64,000 nucleotides of DNA from positions 456 through 64,455 of IMG/VR virus record IMGVR_UViG_3300009168_000008; one strand, 5' to 3'. Source of the stretch: a virus. Taxonomy: Duplodnaviria > Caudoviricetes. This document shows, piece after piece, positions 3,188 to 41,591 of the stretch; position 1 is the first letter of the stretch, and each line of letters opens with the position of its first letter. Both the position numbers and the translations under genes were made by a program. The notes below the pieces were generated by a model that did no database searches, was not told the DNA's origin, and saw nothing but the letters and a program-made list of their open reading frames with translations.

Positions 3188-3252
3188 GGACCTGAGCGCT
3201 GTCGTGGCGCTCAGGTCCACGACCCACGGAGAGTCCGTGGGCAGAAAGGAAC
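3188..3252 (+). ncRNA. Structured intergenic element family A, copy 1
   Basis: 12-bp stem, TGTCGTG loop, ACGAC, second hairpin, CAGAAAGGAAC. Confidence 0.6.
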
Positions 3253-4356: not shown

Positions 4357-4421
4357 GGGAGGTGGGGCTGTCGTGGCCCCACAGCCCACGACCCGGCCAC
4401 CCTGGCTGGGCAGAAAGGAAC
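4357..4421 (+). ncRNA. Structured intergenic element family A, copy 2
   Basis: Same architecture as copy 1 with a different but complementary stem sequence. Confidence 0.6.
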
Positions 4422-6191: not shown

Positions 6192-6254
6192 GGACGGGTG
6201 GGCTGTCGTGGTCTGCCCGCCCACGACCACGGACCATCCGTGGCGGAAAGGAAC
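6192..6254 (+). ncRNA. Structured intergenic element family A, copy 3
   Basis: Same architecture; stem maintained with G-U pairs. Confidence 0.6.
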
Positions 6255-19608: not shown

Positions 19609-20292
19609 ATGCGCATCTACATCCCCAGCCTCGACAGGCCCGGCAACGTGCCGGAGATGCAGGCACAGGCCGGGATCGCCGAGCTCGTCTGGTTGGTGCC
19701 CGAGGACCAGGAGCAGGCCTACCGGAAGGCCGGAGCCAAGAGCGTGATCACGGGGCCGCGCGACAAGCCGAGCAAGATCAACGCCATCCTCGACGCCTAC
19801 CCGGACCAGTGGCGGGTGTTCTCCGACGACGACTGCCGCCGCCTGACGATCCTCAACGACAGTGGAGCTTCGGTGCGTTGCACGCTCGGGCTGGCGGCCT
19901 CGGAGTACATCGCTGTCGGCAACCGCCGGCGCGACCACCTCGTCGCCATGCCGAACATGAGCAACGCCCACTTCGCCGCCCGGCGGGTGAGCGACTGGGG
20001 CTCGACGGTCGGGTGGTTCTTCGCCGTGGCCCCGGACACCGAGTGCCGGCTGGACCCCGAGATGCCCTACGGGGACGACGTCGACTTCGCCTGCCGGGTG
20101 TTCATGCGCTACGGCCGCATCGCCCGCGTGGGGTGGATCATCGGTGACTACCGATACGGCGACCGGGACAGCCACTTCCGCGTCGAGCACATGGCACAGA
20201 ACGATGTCCACCGTGCGCTGATCGCTCGCTACCCCGGGCTGTTGCAGTGGAAGAACGACGCGGTGCTCGGGTTCCGCAGGGTGAAGGCGTGA
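19609..20292 (+). CDS. TET-associated (TAGT/GREB1-like) glycosyltransferase
   Basis: IYIPSLDR, VPEDQ..Y, SDDD, DDVDF, YPG; GT-A fold; leaderless start. Confidence 0.75.
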   Translation: MRIYIPSLDRPGNVPEMQAQAGIAELVWLVPEDQEQAYRKAGAKSVITGPRDKPSKINAILDAYPDQWRVFSDDDCRRLTILNDSGASVRCTLGLAASEYIAVGNRRRDHLVAMPNMSNAHFAARRVSDWGSTVGWFFAVAPDTECRLDPEMPYGDDVDFACRVFMRYGRIARVGWIIGDYRYGDRDSHFRVEHMAQNDVHRALIARYPGLLQWKNDAVLGFRRVKA

Positions 20293-21269
20293 CCGACCAC
20301 TGGCGCATGTTCAGCGAGTTCGCCCGCTACGAGAAGGCGGTCGGCGGTCCGAGCGCCCACCTGTGCATGGTCGCCGGGATGAGCCGCGGGCTGCCGGTCG
20401 ACGAGCAGGTGTGGCGGGCCGGGTGCTACGCAGCGGTCTACAACACGGGCTCGGGGATGGCGCTGTGGAGTCACCTGAGCCGGGCCGAGGTGCTGGCGAT
20501 GGACGAGGGCGAGTTGAGCAACGGGCTCGCCGACTGCTGGGAGGGCCTGCCGATGCACCGCCACCGCCGCGCCATCCGCACCCCCGAGAAGATGGCGCGC
20601 TACCTCCGCTCGTACGCCCTCGCCTCACGGGACTGGCCCGACCGCGACTGGTGGGTGGGCTCGGCGACCCCGGCCCGCTACGAGGACGCCTGGCGTGAGG
20701 TCAACGCCGTCTACGGGGTCGGGCGCTACATCGCCATCCGCATCCTCGAGCTGTTCTCCCGGTTCGGCGCGGGCACCGCCCTGCACGACATCCGGGCGCG
20801 CGACGCGTGGTCCCCGCGGCGCACGCTGTCGCTGCTCTGGCCGCAGCACACCCGGGTGCTCAGCGATGACCAGTCGTTGCGCGGGGCGGCCACCGCCGAG
20901 TCGATCGCCAACACCACGCTGGCCCGGGTGCACGAGGAGTACGGCGTGTGGCTCAACCACTACGAGTTGCAGGTGTTCACGTGCGAGTACCACCAGTCGA
21001 TCGACAACAAGCGGCAGTTCCCCGGGCGGAGCATCGACGGCGAGGGGCAGGCGCTGCGCAAGGTCGAGCCGTACTGGGGCACGGAGGTCACCGCGGCGGG
21101 GTGGGCGGTGCGGCGCGAACTGTTCCCGGAGGTGTCGCTCGGCGAGGTGAACGGCTGGACCACCCGCGACGAGCTCATGCCGGTGGCCGCCGAGCGGGGC
21201 TACACGTGGAGCGACCTCGTCTACGACTACAACGCCACGACCGACCTGTCTGTTCCGGTGCGGCGATGA
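20289..21269 (+). CDS. aGPT-pyrophosphorylase clade 2 / amino acid:DNA transferase-like (HhH-glycosylase fold)
   Basis: GVGRY, ELQVFTCEY, FPGRSID; genomic context. Confidence 0.7.
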   Translation: MTDHWRMFSEFARYEKAVGGPSAHLCMVAGMSRGLPVDEQVWRAGCYAAVYNTGSGMALWSHLSRAEVLAMDEGELSNGLADCWEGLPMHRHRRAIRTPEKMARYLRSYALASRDWPDRDWWVGSATPARYEDAWREVNAVYGVGRYIAIRILELFSRFGAGTALHDIRARDAWSPRRTLSLLWPQHTRVLSDDQSLRGAATAESIANTTLARVHEEYGVWLNHYELQVFTCEYHQSIDNKRQFPGRSIDGEGQALRKVEPYWGTEVTAAGWAVRRELFPEVSLGEVNGWTTRDELMPVAAERGYTWSDLVYDYNATTDLSVPVRR

Positions 21270-22197: not shown

Positions 22198-23195
22198 CGC
22201 TGGACCTTCTTCTTCACCTTGAACCCGGCAGCCCGGGCGTCCTCAGCTTCCGTCGCGTGCAGCGCGGCGCGCCGGGCCTCCTGGCTGGGGTCGGCGCAGC
22301 ACTTGCGCATCCCGGTCTTGGCGTAGGTGACGAGGCTGTAGCGGAAGCCGCCGGGGTGGGCCATGCGCAGCCCGGTGACGCCGTGGACGACCGACTGCCC
22401 GTCGAAGATGGTGATGCTGCCGTGGGGCACGCCGAGGTAGGTGTCGTAGTCGGCGAGGTGGAGCAGCCCACCCTCGACCTGCCGCCGGCACACGAGCATG
22501 GCCGACCAGCTGGTCGAGATGTTGGCCTGGTCGCGGTGGTACGGGAGGCTCACCGTCTTGTTGATGATCCCGCTCGACCACGGCGTGCCGTTGATCAGCC
22601 AGGCCGGGGCGATGTTGTCGCTGACGCGCTGGGCGGTGAGGTCGTGGACGTCGCTGGCGTGGGTGCGAAAGACGTGCTCGGCAATCTCGCAGAAGCGGCC
22701 GATCTGGTCCATCGCCTTCGGGTACTCGCTGTTGAAGATGCTCCGCGAGCAGCCGTACCGCCGCCGCATCGGGACCGGGGGCTGGTAGCCGAAGGTGCGG
22801 TGCGTCACCGCCATCCCGTTGAGGCGCGACGTGGTGCTGGCGTTGTTGAACACCTGGTCGTCCCACTTCACCTGGCTCAGGGATGCGGCGAGGTCGGTGG
22901 CGAGGTCGGTGGCGCAGACGATGTGCACCGCGACGACCTTGCCCGTCTCGGCGTCCGTGATGGCGACGTTGCCCCGGATGATGCGGCTGTCCGGGCCGGG
23001 GTCGGGGGCGTGCGGCTTGATCAGCCGGTTGCCGCAGTTCGGGCACAGCCGGCGCGGGAAGTACGGCACCATCGCCCCACAGGACAGGATGCGCCGCTCC
23101 CAGCGGTCGGTGACGCCCTCGGTGTACGCGCAGGGGACCAGCGGCTCGCCCCGGGGCAGCGTCAGCCGGGGGATGGCGCTCTGCTCACGCTGCAC
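22188..23195 (-). CDS. TET/JBP-family 2OG-Fe(II) dioxygenase
   Basis: HRD...GGLL...FDG..HGVT...RYSLVTY (HxD/H/R); GTG start overlapping the ParB stop. Confidence 0.8.
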   Translation of the reverse strand: MQREQSAIPRLTLPRGEPLVPCAYTEGVTDRWERRILSCGAMVPYFPRRLCPNCGNRLIKPHAPDPGPDSRIIRGNVAITDAETGKVVAVHIVCATDLATDLAASLSQVKWDDQVFNNASTTSRLNGMAVTHRTFGYQPPVPMRRRYGCSRSIFNSEYPKAMDQIGRFCEIAEHVFRTHASDVHDLTAQRVSDNIAPAWLINGTPWSSGIINKTVSLPYHRDQANISTSWSAMLVCRRQVEGGLLHLADYDTYLGVPHGSITIFDGQSVVHGVTGLRMAHPGGFRYSLVTYAKTGMRKCCADPSQEARRAALHATEAEDARAAGFKVKKKVQRFA

Positions 23196-23854
23196 TACGG
23201 CTCGACGAGCTTCAGCCCGGGCTCTTCGTCGGCATCTTCCAGCGCCTCGACCACCAGCCGCTCCACGACGTCGGCGTTGGTGTCCATGCCCCACAGGGCG
23301 CGCAGGCGAGCGAGCCCTTGGGCGACGGGCTCGTAGCGGGCGAACTCGTACGGCAGGATCAGGCTGCGGATGTCGAGCTCGTTGTAGGCGTCGATGCGAT
23401 CCTCGGGGATCACGCCCTGGCGGATGCCACCGACGATGGCGTCGCTCTCCACCGATTGCAGGAGCAGCTCGTAGGCGGCGCGGTCGTAGCCGGTGCCGTC
23501 GAGGCCCTCGCTCTCGACCAGTCCCTTCAACAGCCCGAACAGTGCCTCGTCGTCGTAGAAGGCGAGGTCGCTGGTGCGGTTGTCGGCCAGCAGGATGCGC
23601 GTCGCCGTCTCGTCGTCAGCGTCGACCCAGAACCCGGGGATCGTGTCGTGCCCCTCTTCGACCATCACCCGGTACCGAGTGTTCCCGGCGATGACGGCTC
23701 CGGTCGAGCGCTGGACGAGGATGGCCCCGAAGAAGCCGTTGCGGGCGATGCTCTCGCCCACGGACTGGTCGTCGCCGCGCCGGGGGTTCTCCGGGTGCTG
23801 GTGAATCTTGTCGACCGGGATGGCCGGGTCGAACTCCTGGTCCACGATGTTCAT
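23195..23854 (-). CDS. ParB/Srx-like protein
   Basis: HPENPRRGD..SI..NGF..ILV..VIAGNTR..LADNRTSD. Confidence 0.85.
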   Translation of the reverse strand: MNIVDQEFDPAIPVDKIHQHPENPRRGDDQSVGESIARNGFFGAILVQRSTGAVIAGNTRYRVMVEEGHDTIPGFWVDADDETATRILLADNRTSDLAFYDDEALFGLLKGLVESEGLDGTGYDRAAYELLLQSVESDAIVGGIRQGVIPEDRIDAYNELDIRSLILPYEFARYEPVAQGLARLRALWGMDTNADVVERLVVEALEDADEEPGLKLVEP

Positions 23855-26163: not shown

Positions 26164-26203
26164 CAGTTCCTTTCTCGAAGGCCCCCCGGGCCTTCCCCCT
26201 ATT

Positions 26204-26500
26204 CTAGCCGGTGCCGCCGGGTGGCGGGGTACCCGACGAGCGGCGGATGACACCAGCCGCTTCGGCCCCAGCACGGTCCCGCTCATGGGCCCAGGTGTGG
26301 TGGCGCGGGCAGAGCACCAGCAGGTCTTCCAGGCGGTCCTGGCCCCCGTGTGATCTGAGCAGGGCGTGGTGGACGTGCAGCCCCTGCGAGCACCTGATGT
26401 CGGTGGCGAACCCGAGGTACGGAGCCTGGCACCTCTCCCGATCCCGAGACATCACCGCCTCGTACACCTCTTTGGGCATTGGCCCCTGTTTCTTCCGCAC
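26204..26500 (-). CDS. HNH endonuclease (leaderless)
   Basis: RDRERCQ...HVHH...GG...LCPRHH..AH; TACAAT-N6-GTG. Confidence 0.8.
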   Translation of the reverse strand: MRKKQGPMPKEVYEAVMSRDRERCQAPYLGFATDIRCSQGLHVHHALLRSHGGQDRLEDLLVLCPRHHTWAHERDRAGAEAAGVIRRSSGTPPPGGTG

Positions 26501-26951: not shown

Positions 26952-27313
26952 CCCATCCCAAACACGCGTCACCAACTGAACAACGCGAGGCGGGGGGACA
27001 ACCGCTCAACAAGGGTTCCATTCCGAGTGATCGCTCGGGCCGGTGAAGGCAGACCCGGACGGCCCGCGACGCAGATGAGGCGATCACCTATCCCGGTCCT
27101 GACGCCGCGAGTAATTCCCGCAGCGTGGCTCTCAATGCAGAGCTTCTCCCGTCACAGGGGGGGGCTCTGCCCGGTACCGGGCTGGGCCCCGCGCCGGTAC
27201 CACGGTGCGTGCCGGGGGCTTGCGCGCCCCCGCACCTGCGCCCCGGTAGCGCGTGAGTAACAGAGGCCGCGAGGAACGTGAGTGGCTTGCAATACGCGCG
27301 CGCGGTAGGCCCG

Positions 27314-28996: not shown

Positions 28997-29270
28997 GCCG
29001 TCATCTTGGTCGACGGAGCGGGAGTTGCGCGGAAACCGTCATCCGAATGCAACACGCGCGCGAAGGGCGGGCAGGGCCACTCGCCGGCGAAATGAGTGCG
29101 GATGTGGAGGGGCTTGCCGGGGAGAGTCCGCCGGGCCTCGCACTCCTGGCCACAGTGCGGGCAGATCGAGGGAATCCACGGCTGACGGTGCCGCCCATTT
29201 CCTTCCCGTGACCTGGCCATGCACACAAGATATGCACACCACGCCCACAGGCGGGCACCAGATGTAGGGC

Positions 29271-29305
29271 TAGCCGTCCCAGGTGTACCGCGCTAGAATA
29301 GGGGG
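29271..29305 (+). promoter_or_regulatory. Promoter family B, copy 3
   Basis: TAGCCG-TCCCAG...N17-TAGAAT; GCTAGAATAGGGGG also occurs on the minus strand at 26195-26208. Confidence 0.6.
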
Positions 29306-29341
29306 CGAGAGCTTGTTTCCCGCAGGCTTATGAAAGGAAGG

Positions 29342-30085
29342 ATGGAAGAGATGGAAATCCCAAGGTCCGTCGTCGAGACGGATCACCGCTTGGAGGGAGC
29401 CCACGACCGGGCTTCGGAGGAGCTCGCCCAGCACCGCTGGCAGTGCATCCTCAACCCCGACGGGCCGCGCTACCCCATCCGGCAGTACGCCCGGGCTGTG
29501 GGTCGCAACTACGCCACCGTCGCCCGCTACGCCAAGGGGTGGGCGCTGTACGTGGAGCGCCAGGCCAGCGGCCCCCGCGCGGGGGCCGCGTTCACGTTGC
29601 AGGACGCGATCCGTCAGTCGGAGATGAGCGCCGAGAACCAGGAGTTCGCCGAGGCGATTGCCGAGGGGTCGGGCAAGCCCGTCGCCCAGGTGAGCCGCGG
29701 CGACAACCGCCACAAGATGCACGAGATCGTCGGGCACGCCAAGGAGCGTGCGGAGCGCCGGGGGACGAACCCGGTGGACGAGGCTCGCAACATCGCCACC
29801 CACCAGCGCCAGAGCAAGGAGATGGACGAGCGCAACCGCAAGGCCAAGGCCAAGGCGCGCTCGTTGCGTTTCGTGGAGATCGAGGGCGACCTGGCCGCGG
29901 CCAAGCGCCGCCTGCTCCACGCGCTGCGCACGGCCGAGGGGGTCGGGTTCGCCGAGGAAGAGATGGAGCTGATCCGCGACACGATCAGCACCGTCCAGGC
30001 GATCCTGCAACTGCTCGACCTGCGGATGGCCGGCACGCCGGACGTCGACTGGGACGGTGAGCTCCAGAAGTTGAGCGCGCAGTGA
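29342..30085 (+). CDS. HTH/coiled-coil protein containing palindrome copy 3
   Basis: PIRQYARAVGRNYATVARY HTH-like segment; RBS. Confidence 0.75.
   Translation: MEEMEIPRSVVETDHRLEGAHDRASEELAQHRWQCILNPDGPRYPIRQYARAVGRNYATVARYAKGWALYVERQASGPRAGAAFTLQDAIRQSEMSAENQEFAEAIAEGSGKPVAQVSRGDNRHKMHEIVGHAKERAERRGTNPVDEARNIATHQRQSKEMDERNRKAKAKARSLRFVEIEGDLAAAKRRLLHALRTAEGVGFAEEEMELIRDTISTVQAILQLLDLRMAGTPDVDWDGELQKLSAQ
29570..29587. repeat. 18-bp palindrome, copy 3 (intragenic)
   Basis: Exact; 22 bp with flanks. Confidence 0.9.
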
Positions 30086-30501
30086 GCCGGGAGACGCGGC
30101 GTATCGACCTGCTGACGTACGCCATCGCCAACCCCGGCGGGATCACGGTCGACGACATCATGGCCGAGTTCCACTGGGACCACGGGACCGCCAACAAGGC
30201 GATCCACGACCTCCGGCTGTGGCTCGGCGACTTCGACACGATCAACTTCCCCTGCGACCCACAGGGCCCGCGACAGCGCTGGCTCTATCGCCTCGTCGGC
30301 ACGCTCGATGGGGTGCGCGGGTGGGTGGCCAACCGCATCCTCGACGCCGAGAGCCGTATCCGCACGATCCACGCCATGGTGGCGAGCATCGTGTCGGCGA
30401 CGGACGGGCGCAGCAAGGCGGGCAAGAAGGTTCGCACGATGGAGGTGGCCCTGCGCCACCTGATCGAGAACCTGGAGCTGATCGACGCCGAGGACAGCTG
30501 A
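30082..30501 (+). CDS. Winged-HTH-like protein
   Basis: NPGGITVDDIMAEF..ANKAIHDLR; GTGA overlap. Confidence 0.65.
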   Translation: MSRETRRIDLLTYAIANPGGITVDDIMAEFHWDHGTANKAIHDLRLWLGDFDTINFPCDPQGPRQRWLYRLVGTLDGVRGWVANRILDAESRIRTIHAMVASIVSATDGRSKAGKKVRTMEVALRHLIENLELIDAEDS

Positions 30502-30561
30502 CCGGATACAGCGCCCCCCGGGCAACCGGGGGGCACCCACGTTCTTGAAAGGAACCGACAG

Positions 30562-31194
30562 ATGAACACGACGATGATGGAGAGGCTGCGCTACCGCGGC
30601 CCAGAGATAGACGACCTGGGCGTGAAGGTCGAGCGCTTCGAGGTCAAGCCCGAGGACGAGATGGACTTCGGGCAGTGGCTGAGCCACCTGATGCACGAGA
30701 GCGTCGGGCGCGGGTGCCCGCCGGGCATCTACACCGGGCTGCGAGTCGACGACGTGCTGTGGATGAGCGACACGCCCGCTGAGCGCAAGGACCATCTGGA
30801 ACCGGTCGCGGCGAGCGGCATGTTCCCGAACGGGACCGGCCTGGTCAACGGTCTGGGGCTCGGTTGTGTGGTGGGTGCAATGCTCGACTCACTGGAGCAT
30901 GTCGACGTGGTCGAGAAGGACGACCGGATCATCGACACGGTGGGCGAGTGGTACCGCGACACCTACGGCGACCGGATCACCATCCACCACGCTGACGCGC
31001 TCGCCAAGCGCTGGCCGCGGGGACAGTACTGGTCCGTGGTCTGGCACGACATCTGGCCCAAGCTGTCCCCGGAGAACCTGCCCGAGATGGCGACGCTGCA
31101 CCGTCGCTTCGCGCGTCGGTCCGCCTGGCAGGGTTCGTGGGGGCTCGAGTTCTGCCGGTGGATGCGCAAGGTGGAGGCCGACCGTGGCTGGTAG
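30562..31194 (+). CDS. Spermidine-synthase-like class I SAM-dependent transferase
   Basis: WMSDTPAE, LVNGLGLG, DVVEKD, HADA, WHDIW. Confidence 0.75.
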   Translation: MNTTMMERLRYRGPEIDDLGVKVERFEVKPEDEMDFGQWLSHLMHESVGRGCPPGIYTGLRVDDVLWMSDTPAERKDHLEPVAASGMFPNGTGLVNGLGLGCVVGAMLDSLEHVDVVEKDDRIIDTVGEWYRDTYGDRITIHHADALAKRWPRGQYWSVVWHDIWPKLSPENLPEMATLHRRFARRSAWQGSWGLEFCRWMRKVEADRGW

Positions 31195-31689
31195 GCGGGC
31201 GCGGCTGTTCCCCGAGCTCGCAGGTTCCACGTGGAACGTCTGGTGCTCGCATGAACGGGTGCGCAACGGGGCGTGGCGCATCCTGCTCAGCGGGCTGTCG
31301 GCCAAGGTCGCCGTCGACGAGATGACGACGCGGCAGGACCGCGTCCGGCGCACCAAGCAGCCGTGCAAGTTCCGGGCGCTGATCGATGGGGAGGAGCCCT
31401 GAGTGAGAACCGTGACCAACTCGCCCGGATCATCGCCGCCGCTGAGGCAGCCGCCGCGGAGACGCGCCGGCGGGCCCATCCATGCTCTGTCTGCGGCCGC
31501 TCGATGCTCGACTGGCCTGGACGTACCCGACACTTCTCCTGCGAGCCGGGGTCGCTCGCTGGCCTGGTCTGCACCTGTCCCCCCGGGTGCAGCGGGTCGC
31601 ACTGGGGCGATGGTCCGTCCCGGTGCGACCCTGACTGCGCTCCGTGTGCGATCATGCGGGGGAAGGCGCTGCCGAAGCGGAAGCGATAG
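31184..31689 (+). CDS. Two hypothetical genes (31184-31402; Cys-rich 31399-31689 with possible CTG start)
   Basis: Coupled ORFs. Confidence 0.5.
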
Positions 31690-31791
31690 CGTGTGGGCGG
31701 CACCGGGTCGGGCTTTCCTTTCGGACGTTGCTCCCTTCGGGTTGCAGCTTCGTTTGGTTCCTTTCAACCGGCCCGGTGCCCTCCACACGCT
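31688..31791 (+). ncRNA. Long hairpin RNA with two anti-SD strands in an internal loop
   Basis: Outer stem 31688-31711 with 31768-31791; inner stem capped by cUUCGg; bubble strands CTTTCCTTTC and GGTTCCTTTCA. Confidence 0.6.
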
Positions 31792-31841
31792 GGCGCTTCC
31801 GCCTCCTGGCGGCTATGATGGTGGGTACCTGAAAGGAACCG

Positions 31842-32363
31842 ATGATGCCTGATGAACCCGTTGATCGCGCGCCCGCCGGAGTAGCCCTCGGCTGCCTGGT
31901 GGAGTTGCGCTCCGTACCCGACTGGACGACCGGCGACCTGCTCGACCGAGCCGTCGCGCTGTCCCGCTTGAAGGAGGTCGTGGCGCTCTGCAAGGAGGCG
32001 ATGACCGAGCTCGAACTGAGCCTCGCCGAGTCGATGACCGAAGAGACGATGATCACCCCAGTCGGGCTCCTGCGCCGCACCGAGAAGGTCACCTCGACGT
32101 GGAAGTACGACGGGGCCGGTGACCTGTTCCGCGACGACCTCGCCAACGCCGTCGTGATGCGGGTGGCCGTCGACGTCGGCACCGGGGAGATGGACCCGGT
32201 GAAGCGCAACGTCGCCCGCGAGGCGCTGCGCGTTCTCTACGACGTGATCCCGGCCATCTCGACCGTGAAGTCCGGGGCCAAGCGCGCCATCGGCATCGAC
32301 GTCGGGGACTACCGCAGCTTCTCCCGCCACTACGCCGTCGAACTCCAAGGAGGGGAACCATGA
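31842..32363 (+). CDS. Hypothetical protein
   Basis: TATGAT -10 and TGAAAGGAACC RBS upstream. Confidence 0.75.
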   Translation: MMPDEPVDRAPAGVALGCLVELRSVPDWTTGDLLDRAVALSRLKEVVALCKEAMTELELSLAESMTEETMITPVGLLRRTEKVTSTWKYDGAGDLFRDDLANAVVMRVAVDVGTGEMDPVKRNVAREALRVLYDVIPAISTVKSGAKRAIGIDVGDYRSFSRHYAVELQGGEP

Positions 32364-32995
32364 TCGTTGCCAACGAGGGACAGGTGCTCGCTGCGTTCCA
32401 CGCCGCGCTCGCCTCTGTCGAGGGAGTGACCAAGAGCGAGGCCGGTGGAGAGCGGGGCGGGCGAGTCATCTACTACGCCGGACTCAACGCCGTGCTCGCC
32501 GAGTGCGCCCGGGCCTGCGAGATGCACGGGCTCGCCATCGTCCAAGAGCCGACCGTGGTCGACGGGCTGTTCGGCGTGGCCACGTCGCTGATCCATGAGG
32601 ACGGGTCCGTGCTCCACTTCGCCCCGATGTGCCTGCCGCTGCCCAAGGACGCTCAGGCGCTCGGCTCGGCCACGACCTACCTCCGCCGCTACTCGTTGAC
32701 GGCGATCTTCGGCATCCCGGTCGAGGACGACGACGGCAAGGCCGCCACGTTGGGCGCGACGACAGCGCCGGGGCGGCGCACCGAGGCCGAGCGGATCATC
32801 CGTGAGGAAATGGGAGCGATGGACGAGGACGTGCGGCAGCAGTTCATCGACGCCTTCAAGACCGAGTTCCGGTGCAGCCTGAGCGACCTGCCAGCCAGCC
32901 AACACGGACGGGCGCTGACGTGGACCCGGGAGTGGTCGCCGACGCCACCAGTGGACGAGCCAGCAACCATCGCTGACCCGCCGACAGGCGGGTAA
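32360..32995 (+). CDS. erf: ERF-family ssDNA annealing protein
   Basis: QALGSATTYLRRYSLTAIFGIPVEDDDG. Confidence 0.9.
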   Translation: MIVANEGQVLAAFHAALASVEGVTKSEAGGERGGRVIYYAGLNAVLAECARACEMHGLAIVQEPTVVDGLFGVATSLIHEDGSVLHFAPMCLPLPKDAQALGSATTYLRRYSLTAIFGIPVEDDDGKAATLGATTAPGRRTEAERIIREEMGAMDEDVRQQFIDAFKTEFRCSLSDLPASQHGRALTWTREWSPTPPVDEPATIADPPTGG

Positions 32996-33023
32996 CTACC
33001 CTGCGCACCAAGGAAGGAGAGCC

Positions 33024-33362
33024 ATGAGCGTGAGCGAGATACACACCGAGACGTTGCACAGCGCCGAGGATGTGTGTGGCGCGGTCGGGATCACCTACCG
33101 CATCCTCGACTACTGGTTGCGCAAGGGCTACATCGTCATCGAGAACGACGCCCACGGCAGCGGCAGCCACCGGCGCTTCACGGACGACGAGCTCGACGCG
33201 GTGCGCAAGCTGTTCGCCCGCTACGAGGCGATCCAGGCCGACCTGGCCGAGATCGCCGACGGCACGGCCTGGTCGATGATTCGAATGCTCCAACTGAAAG
33301 GAAACGACGATGACGAACCCACTGTCAGAGAGCGACATCCAAGCGCTCGTCGGACGGGCTGA
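33024..33362 (+). CDS. MerR-like HTH protein
   Basis: VGITYRILDYWLRKG...GSGSHRRFTDDE. Confidence 0.85.
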   Translation: MSVSEIHTETLHSAEDVCGAVGITYRILDYWLRKGYIVIENDAHGSGSHRRFTDDELDAVRKLFARYEAIQADLAEIADGTAWSMIRMLQLKGNDDDEPTVRERHPSARRTG

Positions 33363-33803
33363 GGCAGAGGCGCAAGCCGAGCTGCCGGATATGCCAGCGG
33401 CGGTGGTCGAGGTCGACCTGCCGCCCGACCGCGACGAGCGGCCTTACGAGACGGCCCGCAACACCCTCAGCGTTGCCCTCGACCTGACCCGCGAGCGGCT
33501 GGCCGAGCGACGCGCTCACCGCGACGACGTGAACGCCGAGATCAAGCTGCTCGTGGAAGAGGCAGAGTTGCTCGACCGCATGTGGCGGATCGCTGCTGCC
33601 GCCGCCAAGAAGGAGAGCTGATGGACGACTCGATCGCTTCCCCCGCCGACCCGGAGATCGACATGACCATCGCCGGTGGTGTGCCGATCCCGCTGATGGC
33701 GGTGACCCACAACGAGGCGGGCGATCTGGTGATCACGATCCCCAAGGAGACGCGCGCCGGTGACCTCATCATGAGCCTGCTCAACGGGCTACGGACGTCG
33801 TAG
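33310..33803 (+). CDS. Two hypothetical genes (33310-33621, 33621-33803)
   Basis: RBSs; TGATG overlap. Confidence 0.65.
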
Positions 33804-34227
33804 CGCACGGGCAGTAGGCCGTCGTCGGGGGAGCCGTGCCCCCGGGGGCGGTCCCCGTGCTCGGCCCGCCGCCTGGGGCGGTCGTAGAAGCTCCTGGAAG
33901 GCTGCTGGTCGAGGTACCGGCCCCGCCCCCGCCCGCGGTAGTGGACGGCCTCCCAGCGGTCGTAGAGGGGCCGCTCACAGCCGTCGAGGTACCGCCCCCG
34001 CCCCCCGGCGCTGTCGTCGTGGTGTTGCCGTTGCCGTTGCCGTTGTTCCCACCCCCGCCACCGTTGCCGCTGTTGCCGTTGTCGACCGTGGTCGGGGGAA
34101 GCGTGGGGCAGGTGAGCTCGGAGGCAGCGTGAGTCGTGGCGTCATCGACGGCCGTGGCGACAGCGGTGAACGTCAGCCCGGCGCTGATCACGAAGAAGCC
34201 AGCAGCGGCGAGGATGCGGGCGTTCAT
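33781..34227 (-). CDS. Exported Gly/Thr-rich low-complexity protein at the end of the lysis module
   Basis: N-terminal hydrophobic segment; GN/GT repeats. Confidence 0.6.
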   Translation of the reverse strand: MNARILAAAGFFVISAGLTFTAVATAVDDATTHAASELTCPTLPPTTVDNGNSGNGGGGGNNGNGNGNTTTTAPGGGGGTSTAVSGPSTTAGRPSTTAGGGGAGTSTSSLPGASTTAPGGGPSTGTAPGGTAPPTTAYCPCATTSVAR

Positions 34228-34520
34228 CGTCGCCGCCATCCATGCCGACGCTCGTTCACGGCGATCGGGTGGTGGTCGGGCGGGGCCGGGGCCGCAGGTG
34301 TCTCGACGCCGAGGTCGGCCAGCTGCACGCGCAGGTTGGCGGCGTAGCGGCGCAGATCGATGTACGACTGGTCGGATCGGTAGAGGTCGGCGGTGAGCTC
34401 GTCGACTTCCTGGCGAGCAGCGTTGTGCTCACGGTTGCGGAACTCTCGCATGACCAACGCCATGCCGATCGCCGCGGTGAACACTGCGCCGATGCCGGCG
34501 AAGATCGCGGTCGAGTCCAC
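34224..34520 (-). CDS. Membrane protein (TM plus coiled coil), lysis module
   Basis: N-terminal TM. Confidence 0.65.
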   Translation of the reverse strand: MDSTAIFAGIGAVFTAAIGMALVMREFRNREHNAARQEVDELTADLYRSDQSYIDLRRYAANLRVQLADLGVETPAAPAPPDHHPIAVNERRHGWRRR

Positions 34521-40485: not shown

Positions 40486-41591
40486 GGCAGAGTCCCCGGC
40501 GGGAGGTCGGCGACCGAGCCCGGCGCAGCCACCGCGGTGAAGTTGACGACCTCGCCCTTCGGTGCCGTCTCTTCGACGCGCACCTCGTGGAGGCGGTGCC
40601 ACTCGCTGACCTTGCGGCACATCCGCGTGGCCACGGCGAGGAACCAGGCTCCGGGGATCATGTCCGGGATGGTCCACGGCGCGCCGGGGAGCAGCGTCGT
40701 GTTGGCCGGGATGACGATGGCCACCGGGGCGGGCGAACGGTCGGCGATGTTGCGCGCCGCCGTCTTGCTCCACGAGGCGATCTCGGCGGCGTCGGGCGCG
40801 GAGAGGTCGGAGTCGTCGAGGTTGGTGATCAGCCAGTCGATGTCGCCGTAGAGGTCGAGCATCGTCTGCGGCGCGCTGGCCGTGCCGGCGTAGCCCTCGG
40901 TGTTGGAGACGAAGCCCTGGGTCGCGGCCTGGTTGCCGTACTCGACGATGCGCGGGAACTGCGACAGGTGATCGTCGTGCAGCGTCGGGATGATCTTCCA
41001 GCGCAGGTGGACGTCCCAGTAGTAGATGTCACGATTGACCACCGTGTAGTCGGTGCCGTTGTCCTCGGCGTACTTGTCGAAGTCCTCCCAGGTGTAGTAC
41101 TGGAACGCCCCCACCTTGCGGGTGGTCGATGGCTCGTCCTCGTGGCGCACCGGGTGGAGGTGCGGGACCATCTTCCACGGGTCGCTGTTGCGGGCGTAGG
41201 TCTGCGAGCGCATCAGCCAGTCCATCCGGTCGAGCACGTTGCCGATGTTCGGGTAGCTCTGGTCGTAGCCCGTCCGCAGCACCGTGCGCTTGGCCACCCA
41301 GAGCATGTCCTCGGCGTAGACCTTCACGTTGTCCCACTCGTACTCGATGCGGGTGATCGGCCCCTGCCAGACCTCCACGCCGTCGCGCTCGATGTGGAGC
41401 TCGTGGAGGATCGTGCGCAGATCGCCGAGCAGGTCGCAGCAGTTCGTCGTGCCGACGGCGACGTAGCCCTCGGAGATGTTGTCGCGGATGCGGTTCCAGC
41501 GCACCGCCGTCGCCGGGGTCAACTCCCCGATCAGCGGCGAGCCACCGCGCCCGTAGACGAAGGCGCGATGCCTCCCGCAGGTGAACGCCAC
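40482..41591 (-). CDS. Minor tail protein (Tal/hub-like)
   Basis: Position; HELHIERDGVEVWQGPI. Confidence 0.75.
   Translation of the reverse strand: MAFTCGRHRAFVYGRGGSPLIGELTPATAVRWNRIRDNISEGYVAVGTTNCCDLLGDLRTILHELHIERDGVEVWQGPITRIEYEWDNVKVYAEDMLWVAKRTVLRTGYDQSYPNIGNVLDRMDWLMRSQTYARNSDPWKMVPHLHPVRHEDEPSTTRKVGAFQYYTWEDFDKYAEDNGTDYTVVNRDIYYWDVHLRWKIIPTLHDDHLSQFPRIVEYGNQAATQGFVSNTEGYAGTASAPQTMLDLYGDIDWLITNLDDSDLSAPDAAEIASWSKTAARNIADRSPAPVAIVIPANTTLLPGAPWTIPDMIPGAWFLAVATRMCRKVSEWHRLHEVRVEETAPKGEVVNFTAVAAPGSVADLPPGTLP

Follow-up and report, generated by a model that had tools for sequence, protein, structure and literature searches.

A conserved hairpin in a phage-like genome displays the complement of a start-associated ribosome site and is probably an antisense RNA

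What is the role of a very stable hairpin that holds, in an open bubble, the complement of the sequence with which a phage starts many of its own genes? This question is raised by positions 31674-31805 (plus strand) of a 64,000-nt stretch of DNA, called here the window, which comes from an uncultured actinophage and makes up most of a complete phage-like genome of 64,455 bases and 69% G+C (IMG/VR record IMGVR_UViG_3300009168_000008). The original prediction, made from the letters of the sequence, took the core of this element for an RNA that silences a class of early genes through their ribosome-binding sites. Our analysis indicates that the element is probably a same-strand antisense RNA that occludes ribosome sites resembling the start-associated sequence (SAS) of Cluster K mycobacteriophages, and we give the reading that it acts in trans on such sites a probability of roughly 45%.

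The motif that the hairpin complements is closely tied to gene starts. The 11-mer TGAAAGGAACC has eight exact copies in the window, six on the plus strand (2609, 6821, 12067, 12522, 30546, and 31830) and two on the minus strand (25637 and 31756), and none in dinucleotide shuffles; every coordinate given for it in the original prediction holds one. The 9-mer GAAAGGAA occurs 21 times, and 19 of these copies stand 1-8 nt upstream of the starts (ATG in 18, GTG in one) of open reading frames (ORFs) that have 44 codons or more and score positively for coding, all of them within the non-structural part of the genome (2-34 kb). No copy is found in the structural region (34-64 kb), whose genes, on the minus strand, have GGAGG-type ribosome sites. 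The only copies without a usable start are the two minus-strand, that is antisense, copies inside the hairpin: the one at 31765(-) has no ATG, GTG, or TTG within 16 nt, and the one at 31722(-) has, 11 nt further on, a GTG as the start of an ORF (31287-31703, minus strand) with a coding score of -49, antisense to a conserved plus-strand gene, which bears out the earlier claim that no credible minus-strand gene uses these copies. In the window the motif takes the form (T/C)GAAAGGAAC(C); its GAAAGGA part can pair with the 3' tail of actinobacterial 16S rRNA, and the conserved AC(C) after it cannot.

Because 19 of the 21 copies precede early starts and the other two lie antisense in a hairpin, we liken this motif to the SAS of Cluster K. 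As described in excerpts of Pope et al. 2011, the latter is an asymmetric motif over the Shine-Dalgarno site, 3-7 bp before the mostly ATG starts of 11-19 non-structural genes, conserved beyond the bases that can pair with 16S rRNA and of unknown function (PMC3203893), and its role is still called unknown in passages of papers from 2024 and 2025 (PMC11373665, PMC12699233). Similarly, the window motif is asymmetric, overlaps the Shine-Dalgarno site in one orientation a few nucleotides before a subset of non-structural starts, and is confined to the early region, its start-less copies being the reversed ones. Nevertheless, it reads GAAAGGAAC(C) and does not match the Cluster K consensus GGGATAGGAGCCC, and the window phage belongs to an unrelated group, the closest portal protein within the phage collection being 38% identical. 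Judged by its sequence, the window motif is an analogue of the Cluster K SAS and not a member of that class.

The element itself is a long imperfect hairpin, whose two 38-nt outer arms (31674-31711 and 31768-31805) are 84% complementary. Its core (31688-31791) folds as had been predicted, with a minimum free energy (MFE) of -62.7 kcal/mol in RNAfold compared to -37.5 +/- 3.4 kcal/mol for shuffled sequences (z -7.47, 0 of 200 shuffles being as stable), and when both strands were scanned in 8,520 windows of 110 nt, the hairpin ranked second by GC-adjusted MFE. The outer stem of about 22 bp in the original prediction is present, but the inverted repeat is longer than was thought; likewise, the sequence of the expected cUUCGg loop exists (CTTCGG, 31735-31740), but RNAfold draws a 3-nt loop there, the tetraloop being possible and not the predicted optimum. 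This CUUCGG belongs to an inner stem-loop (31723-31752, plus strand), which lies between the two strands of the bubble. The 5' bubble strand CUUUCCUUUC (31713-31722, plus strand), the first anti-SAS copy, is the complement of GAAAGGAAAG and forms a predicted duplex of -15.4 kcal/mol with SAS; in the fold, where it is written CTTTCCTTTC, it is unpaired in both the MFE and the centroid structures, with an opening energy of 3.1 kcal/mol. The 3' bubble strand GGUUCCUUUCA (31756-31766, plus strand; GGTTCCTTTCA in the fold), the second anti-SAS copy, is the exact complement of TGAAAGGAACC, is also unpaired in both structures (opening energy 2.0 kcal/mol), and ends 1 nt from the 3' strand of the outer stem. 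The two strands are open and complementary to the early-gene motif, as anticipated, and the complement indeed extends past GAAAGGA into bases that the 16S tail, in the form we assume, leaves unpaired. The predicted preference for a plus-strand RNA also holds: the region 31660-31870 folds at -111.7 kcal/mol on the plus strand versus -93.6 kcal/mol on the minus strand, and the hairpin has five G-U pairs in the plus-strand fold and none in the minus-strand fold. No Rfam family reaches its gathering score within the window, ARAGORN finds no tRNA there, and the window element has no T-arm.

The predicted duplexes differ in strength. The duplex of the 3' bubble strand with SAS reaches -19.9 kcal/mol, that of the assumed 16S tail with SAS -9.6 kcal/mol, and that of the anti-SAS with a GGAGG-type late site -10.2 kcal/mol, so that GGAGG-led genes are, as had been proposed, the poorer predicted targets. 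Endoribonucleases with UUCCU or CUCCU specificities occur in mycobacteria, and the loop, UUCCUUUC, could be imagined as a mimic of the 16S 3' tail, a decoy for a tail-recognizing factor such as a host endoribonuclease of the MazF kind. What speaks for this is that the loop shares CCUUUC with the tail and that the corresponding loop of the Cluster K phage Anaya, discussed below, contains CUCCU. However, the complement of any Shine-Dalgarno-like motif necessarily resembles the tail, and where the phage motif and the rRNA differ (GGUU versus ACCU in the tail) the loop follows the phage motif, which makes a decoy very improbable.

Does the display extend beyond this genome? Searches of the GenBank phage collection by megablast, blastn, or tblastn of the 173-aa protein encoded downstream of the hairpin returned nothing related to the region, and the 173-aa and Erf proteins led to no relatives in IMG/VR; only the portal protein gave access to relatives, matching 28 IMG/VR contigs at 35-78% identity. 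Subsequent searches with the 173-aa protein and with the Cys-rich protein encoded upstream added six distinct loci whose genes are in the same order (G001, G003, G008, G009, L067, which is identical to L073, and L074). At all seven loci, including the window, the stop codon of the Cys-rich gene is overlapped or adjoined by a strong hairpin, followed by a TANNNT box in the same position and then by the ribosome site for the homologue of the 173-aa protein. Five of the six relatives, all but G003, display GUUCCUUUC at the 3' end of the loop, with 0-2 nt between it and the stem. Among G001, L067, and L074 the 13-nt loop is invariant and 5 of the 20 stem pairs vary, with all 60 cells paired and two pairs changed on both sides, and the stems of different lineages have no sequence in common. 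Except in G008, the plus strand is more stable than the minus strand by 6-12 kcal/mol, with 2-5 G-U pairs in the plus-strand folds of these six loci and none in their minus-strand folds.

The motif, too, marks gene starts across the group, and start-less copies are only the reversed ones within these structures. Counted as majority over opposite orientation, the 9-mer has 8/1 copies in G001, 11/0 in G003, 9/2 in G004, 9/2 in G005, 17/0 in G006, 8/1 in G007, and 0/0 in G002; G008 has about 25 copies of GAAAGGAA. Nine related contigs, including the window, have exactly one structured intergenic RNA with the antisense 9-mer, and a tenth (G003) has a shifted version, which is the conservation of the bubble that the original prediction had named as a test. 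The opening energy of the anti-site is 0.06-3.6 kcal/mol in nine of the ten phage elements and 6.0 kcal/mol in the tenth (locus L088). A scan of viral contigs for a double anti-site gave 20 matches, about the number expected by chance, all in contigs of 25-52% GC without a related structure. Since Arthrobacter phage Tank and Microbacterium phage Dismas have no GAAAGGAAC class, no cultured member of the group was found.

The place of these hairpins, at or over a stop codon at all seven loci and before a promoter-like box, is the usual one for the end of an operon. A terminator, or a hairpin that protects the 3' end of the upstream operon and keeps its pyrimidine loop for a protein (for example S1, a host factor, or the Cys-rich protein), would account for this place, for the high rank of the window hairpin in the fold-energy scan, and for the joint occurrence of the Cys-rich gene and hairpin at seven loci, as well as for their absence, together with that of the motif, from G002. 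Nevertheless, no T-run follows any of the stems (in the window the sequence right after the stem is CTGGCGGCTATGATGG), and a scan of 29000-34500 for intrinsic terminators, that is a G+C-rich stem followed by a T run, found no site. A contig from soil RNA libraries (31740-31890), if it is RNA, reads through the hairpin, and the loop is present without the Cys-rich gene in three genomes described below (G004, G005, and G016). An operon end also fails to explain why an invariant loop should exactly complement the start motif of the phage while stems and scaffolds change, and we regard this explanation as unlikely.

Another explanation concerns the gene that follows. Between the hairpin and this gene lies TATGAT (31814-31819, plus strand), a -10-like hexamer and putative promoter, and then the SAS-type site TGAAAGGAACC (31830-31840, plus strand) of the gene starting with ATG at 31842. 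The element could be a silencer acting only in cis: on read-through transcripts, the displayed strand would block the ribosome site 63 nt downstream, that of the 173-aa/Erf operon, without any action in trans, and transcripts starting at the TATGAT promoter between the two sites would lack the anti-site and be translated. Such a plan has a precedent in phage T4, where, in the parts of the source used here, an upstream complement blocks the ribosome site of e, soc, 49, I-TevI, and other genes on long transcripts and an intervening promoter gives translatable ones (PMC2988022). In the window, 31756-31766 and 31830-31840 are complementary over exactly 11 nt, and the pairing reaches 13 bp with 31830-31842 when G-U pairs are counted; 11 Watson-Crick pairs were reached by 0 of 2000 shuffles. 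At all seven Cys-gene-linked loci the TANNNT box separates the anti-site from the site, and the 151-nt library contig spans 31740-31890 without a difference. In two relatives the downstream site differs: the G009 site GAAAGGGAC still pairs over 10 bp with the anti-site through one G-U, and in G003, whose site is AAGGAGAACCAACAAUG, the hairpin strand is a shifted complement of that start region, with 10 Watson-Crick pairs (reached in 3 of 2000 shuffles) or 12 bp with G-U, reaching the AUG.

Several observations stand against silencing in cis alone, which we consider rather unlikely and to which we prefer action in trans on the SAS-type sites. The anti-site is part of a separate, very stable hairpin, so that pairing with the downstream site would make a pseudoknot; this is absent from the MFE structure of 31660-31870, in which the anti-site stays in the upstream bubble and the Shine-Dalgarno region folds locally. 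The next gene has no SAS in G016 and Anaya, G004 has no -10-like box between its element and the next SAS 65 nt away, and a scan of 29000-34500 for the sigma-70 consensus found no promoter. The adjacency of the hairpin to an SAS gene says little, as every intergenic gap of the early region is followed by one. Finally, the G003 strand forms 10 bp with two further members of the class as well, at 19762 and 22099, and G003 was dropped as clean proof of gene-specific pairing for this reason. Separately, a second GAACCAACAA, the complement of the G003 hairpin strand, lies at 27291-27300 of G003, 5 nt inside an SAS-led coding region, and may be a second target or a chance match.

The loop is also found on quite different carriers. 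The Cys-rich and 173-aa genes are both absent from genomes G004 and G005, each of which has one reversed 9-mer that does not serve as a ribosome site. In both, the fold around it begins at the stop codon of an unrelated gene and has an acceptor stem of 6-7 bp and a GGGTTCGAnTCCC T-arm. A third case, G016 (locus L088), came from a pattern scan and lies in a contig of 62% G+C whose genes also have GAAAGG-type sites, with no SAS before the gene downstream of the element. In all three genomes, whose neighbouring genes are unrelated, the same 9-mer occupies the anticodon-loop position of a tRNA-like fold, although the loops measure 8-17 nt and a tRNA anticodon loop 7 nt. The scan for the anti-site together with a T-arm had six matches, three of which are variable arms of ordinary class II tRNAs in contigs of lower GC (34-58%). 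The same loop has thus been retained on three kinds of carrier. A tRNA-like scaffold would suit an RNA that is cut out and retained, as the c4 RNA of phage P1 is by RNase P, according to excerpts of PMC5320573.

Directly 5' of the tRNA-like element of G004, at L087:1087-1128, we also observe a second T-arm with an acceptor-like mini-helix, whose linker contains ACCUCC. A blastn search with the tRNA-like region of G004 gave a match of 28 nt only, over the T-arm, in 12 Microbacterium phages, where it falls near the right end and carries no annotation. In Dismas, a tRNA-like fold that is likewise unannotated precedes the tRNA-Gln, at about 41043-41132.

These T-arm-like sequences could in principle be the copied 3' half of a tRNA gene, and the element of the window is a long inverted repeat in an intergenic gap beside recombination genes, which brings to mind a site acting at the DNA level, such as a protein operator, a replication or recombination site, or a phage attachment site (attP) with a partial tRNA gene. 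However, the G-U pairs are restricted to one strand at six of the seven loci, the stems carry compensatory substitutions, and the tRNA-like folds possess a 5' acceptor strand too. A tyrosine integrase was found in none of five genomes (G000, G001, G004, G005, and G016) by a search that recovered 14 of 14 controls and did not cover serine integrases, so that an attP with a copied tRNA half is unlikely. On this evidence, a DNA site as the basis of the feature is highly unlikely.

The reversed motif has a counterpart in Cluster K. Each K1 phage has one SAS in opposite orientation without a gene start, as stated in a part of Pope et al. 2011 (PMC3203893), and the excerpts used here of that paper and of two later ones mention no hairpin around it (PMC3203893, PMC11373665, PMC12699233). 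In Anaya (JF704106, 59848-59898; L076:39849-39899), this lone reversed SAS forms the 10-nt apical loop CCUCCUAUCC of a hairpin in the gap between gp96 and gp97, the latter being the gene without SAS referred to above. The region is conserved in 135 Cluster K records. In an alignment of ten of them, the loop is identical in six, pyrimidine-rich in two, and different in two, and both helices are retained by RNAalifold, two pairs of the outer stem having changed on both sides. We consider the Cluster K element an independent analogue of the window hairpin. Its counterpart in Adephagia (L093, NC_051610 58601-58742) lies in the gap between gp92 and gp93, where late transcription appears to initiate, according to the RNA-seq of a published study (PMC11373665). 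Because of this reported late start in the same gap, the anti-SAS could ride on the late transcript and shut off early proteins. More broadly, SAS and anti-SAS could form a general RNA circuit of actinophages, in which each SAS lineage encodes one loop-displayed complement, on a hairpin or a tRNA-like carrier, that controls the whole class in trans, with the window group and Cluster K as two independent cases; this extension is tentative and, at present, we lean against it. Some Cluster K annotations call an ORF across the reversed-SAS hairpin (Validus gp103, Amgine gp95).

Other repeated sequences stand ahead of SAS-led genes in the window. Three copies of GCTGTCGTGG-N9-CCACGACC (3198-3224, 4367-4393, and 6202-6228; 0 expected by shuffling) each form a hairpin, whose conserved loop GUCGUGG complements CCACGAC just past the stem, making a pseudoknot possible; each is followed by a small hairpin and then by an SAS-led gene, reminiscent of the extended SAS of Cluster K. 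The sequence TAGAATAGGGGG occurs twice, at 26195-26206 (minus strand) and 29294-29305 (plus strand), each time about 25-35 nt ahead of an SAS-led gene on the same strand. The pair resembles diverging promoters around 26.2-29.3 kb, and is not above chance when up to two mismatches are allowed (19 of 100 shuffles). Also, GGGGTAGAATAG precedes the 173-aa gene in G001 and L074.

Which known regulators resemble the element? Pyrimidine-loop RNAs such as RNAIII and RsaE of Staphylococcus aureus and the actinobacterial 6C RNA seed with C/U-rich loops on the G-rich ribosome sites of several targets; these are host RNAs with short UCCC seeds, whereas here a phage RNA would offer a 9-11 nt exact complement of a phage-specific motif. 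The T4 sequestration shares its logic with the window element and not its architecture: in T4 the segments form the hairpin itself, whereas here a hairpin or tRNA-like fold of its own carries the anti-site, which is shared by many genomes and in two cases lacks a matching site downstream. The closest system is the c4 RNA of P1 and P7, whose target lies downstream in the same operon. In the accessible portions of the literature, this RNA is encoded on the same strand as its target, is cut by RNase P from a longer transcript, and pairs with the target through its loops, one of them over the ribosome-binding site (PMC5320573, PMC12197685). Similarly, the window element lies upstream of a target encoded on its own strand, with an anti-site in its loop that complements the ribosome-binding region of that target (11 nt exactly, 13 bp with G-U), and three relatives have a tRNA-like scaffold. 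On the other hand, c4 controls one operon, icd-ant, for immunity, whereas here the motif is common to 19 genes and the host is actinobacterial, and the window element matches Rfam C4 neither in sequence nor in structure; the C4 covariance model gave no match at E<=1 in eight related loci, and Rfam searches of relatives gave chance-level matches only. From these comparisons, the element would work most like the c4 RNA of P1 and P7 without being a member of the Rfam C4 family, and would represent a new variant of antisense control of ribosome sites. The original prediction suggested that the regulon could be undescribed, and this needs tempering: the plan is that of c4, and the lone reversed SAS was noted by Pope et al. 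in 2011, although our literature search found no paper on phages that describes a hairpin with an anti-SAS or an anti-Shine-Dalgarno RNA resembling a tRNA.

The feature is real and conserved. We propose that a structured plus-strand RNA would arise from the 3' portion of the Cys-rich gene's transcript, and that its very stable scaffold would display the complement of the start motif GAAAGGAAC in an open loop. With SAS-type sites the displayed strand would form 9-13 bp, a stronger pairing than the 16S rRNA tail can offer, and would keep 30S subunits off them. The nearest target would be the 173-aa/Erf operon on read-through transcripts, and a stable RNA, excised or ending at the hairpin, would also reach the remaining 18 SAS-led early genes in trans, while late genes led by GGAGG would be largely spared. 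Accumulation of the RNA, pairing in vivo, and repression by this pairing are all presumed in this scheme. Its trans component is suggested by the display of the loop on stable carriers, including tRNA-like ones, by the presence of one element per genome, and by the Cluster K analogue.

A number of points weigh against this antisense scheme and in particular against its action in trans. The consensus scan of 29000-34500 found no promoter of the element's own, and the position of the hairpin is uninformative because every early-region intergenic gap precedes an SAS gene. In four soil RNA-seq libraries, 151-nt contigs at a depth of 2-3, which show neither RNA ends nor strand and may be carried-over DNA, are scattered over 30.6-32.1 kb, with no pile-up on the hairpin and no cover at 31257-31739; the contig 31740-31890 extends without differences from the 3' half of the hairpin into the next gene and, if it is RNA, runs through, so that the hairpin would not be an efficient end point. 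The covariation in the stems comes from three close sequences and is weak, the observed values being reached by 70 of 500 shuffles. In the available fragments of G006 and G007 there is no antisense copy, and G003, with 13 copies of GAAAGGAA, has no exact anti-SAS; that its strand pairs best with its own downstream start would fit a gene-specific role better. Finally, cleavage of the tRNA-like elements by RNase P is a conjecture, and neither ARAGORN nor the Rfam tRNA model calls these elements (ARAGORN found none at the L082 and L084 elements, and the Rfam model none at E<=10 in L087).

The genes on either side of the hairpin are themselves conserved. The upstream gene (31363-31689, plus strand, with GTG at 31363 or 31273 as start candidates) encodes a Cys-rich, zinc-ribbon-like protein, whose last 96 codons show 38-51% identity to homologues at five loci, with eight invariant Cys plus His. 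Its codon score is weak, its TAG stop (31687-31689) falls within the 5' arm of the hairpin, and the protein has no match in Pfam or PHROGs and no usable family in the Atlas (best score 0.88). Its reading frame overlaps the end of an upstream ORF (31259-31402) with very high G+C at third codon positions, and its coding region contains a second strong hairpin (31594-31631), with 16-nt arms that are 88% complementary; the scan window around it ranks fourth by fold energy. The downstream gene (31842-32363, plus strand, coding score 81.9) had been named erf; it encodes instead the 173-aa protein, which has homologues in G001, G002, and G003 and only weak leads in the Atlas, to nuclease or Gam-like folds. 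Erf, as assigned by PHROGs, is the product of the next gene (32360-32995), whose start is overlapped by the stop of the 173-aa gene. Elsewhere in the window, the ORF 20247-21269 (plus strand) has a borderline match to the Pfam family ADDT (amino acid:DNA transferase; E 1.1e-5, 25.8 bits versus a cut-off of 26.2) and is a possible DNA hypermodification gene, and 23195-23854 (minus strand), in the leftward early-gene block, encodes a protein with a ParB N-terminal domain (E 6.1e-6).

SAS motifs have been known in mycobacteriophages since 2011, and the finding in the window ties a motif of this kind to a conserved RNA in which its exact complement is present. The same arrangement exists in an unrelated group, the Cluster K phages of Mycobacterium smegmatis, and because these are cultivable, the question can be tested with reporters, loop mutants, and existing RNA-seq data. 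If the proposed role is correct, one small RNA would be a translational switch with which phages control an entire class of their own genes, and tRNA-like folds would have been reused as carriers of antisense loops. Should the circuit prove to be general among actinophages, it would offer a concrete and testable answer to the SAS puzzle that has been open since 2011.

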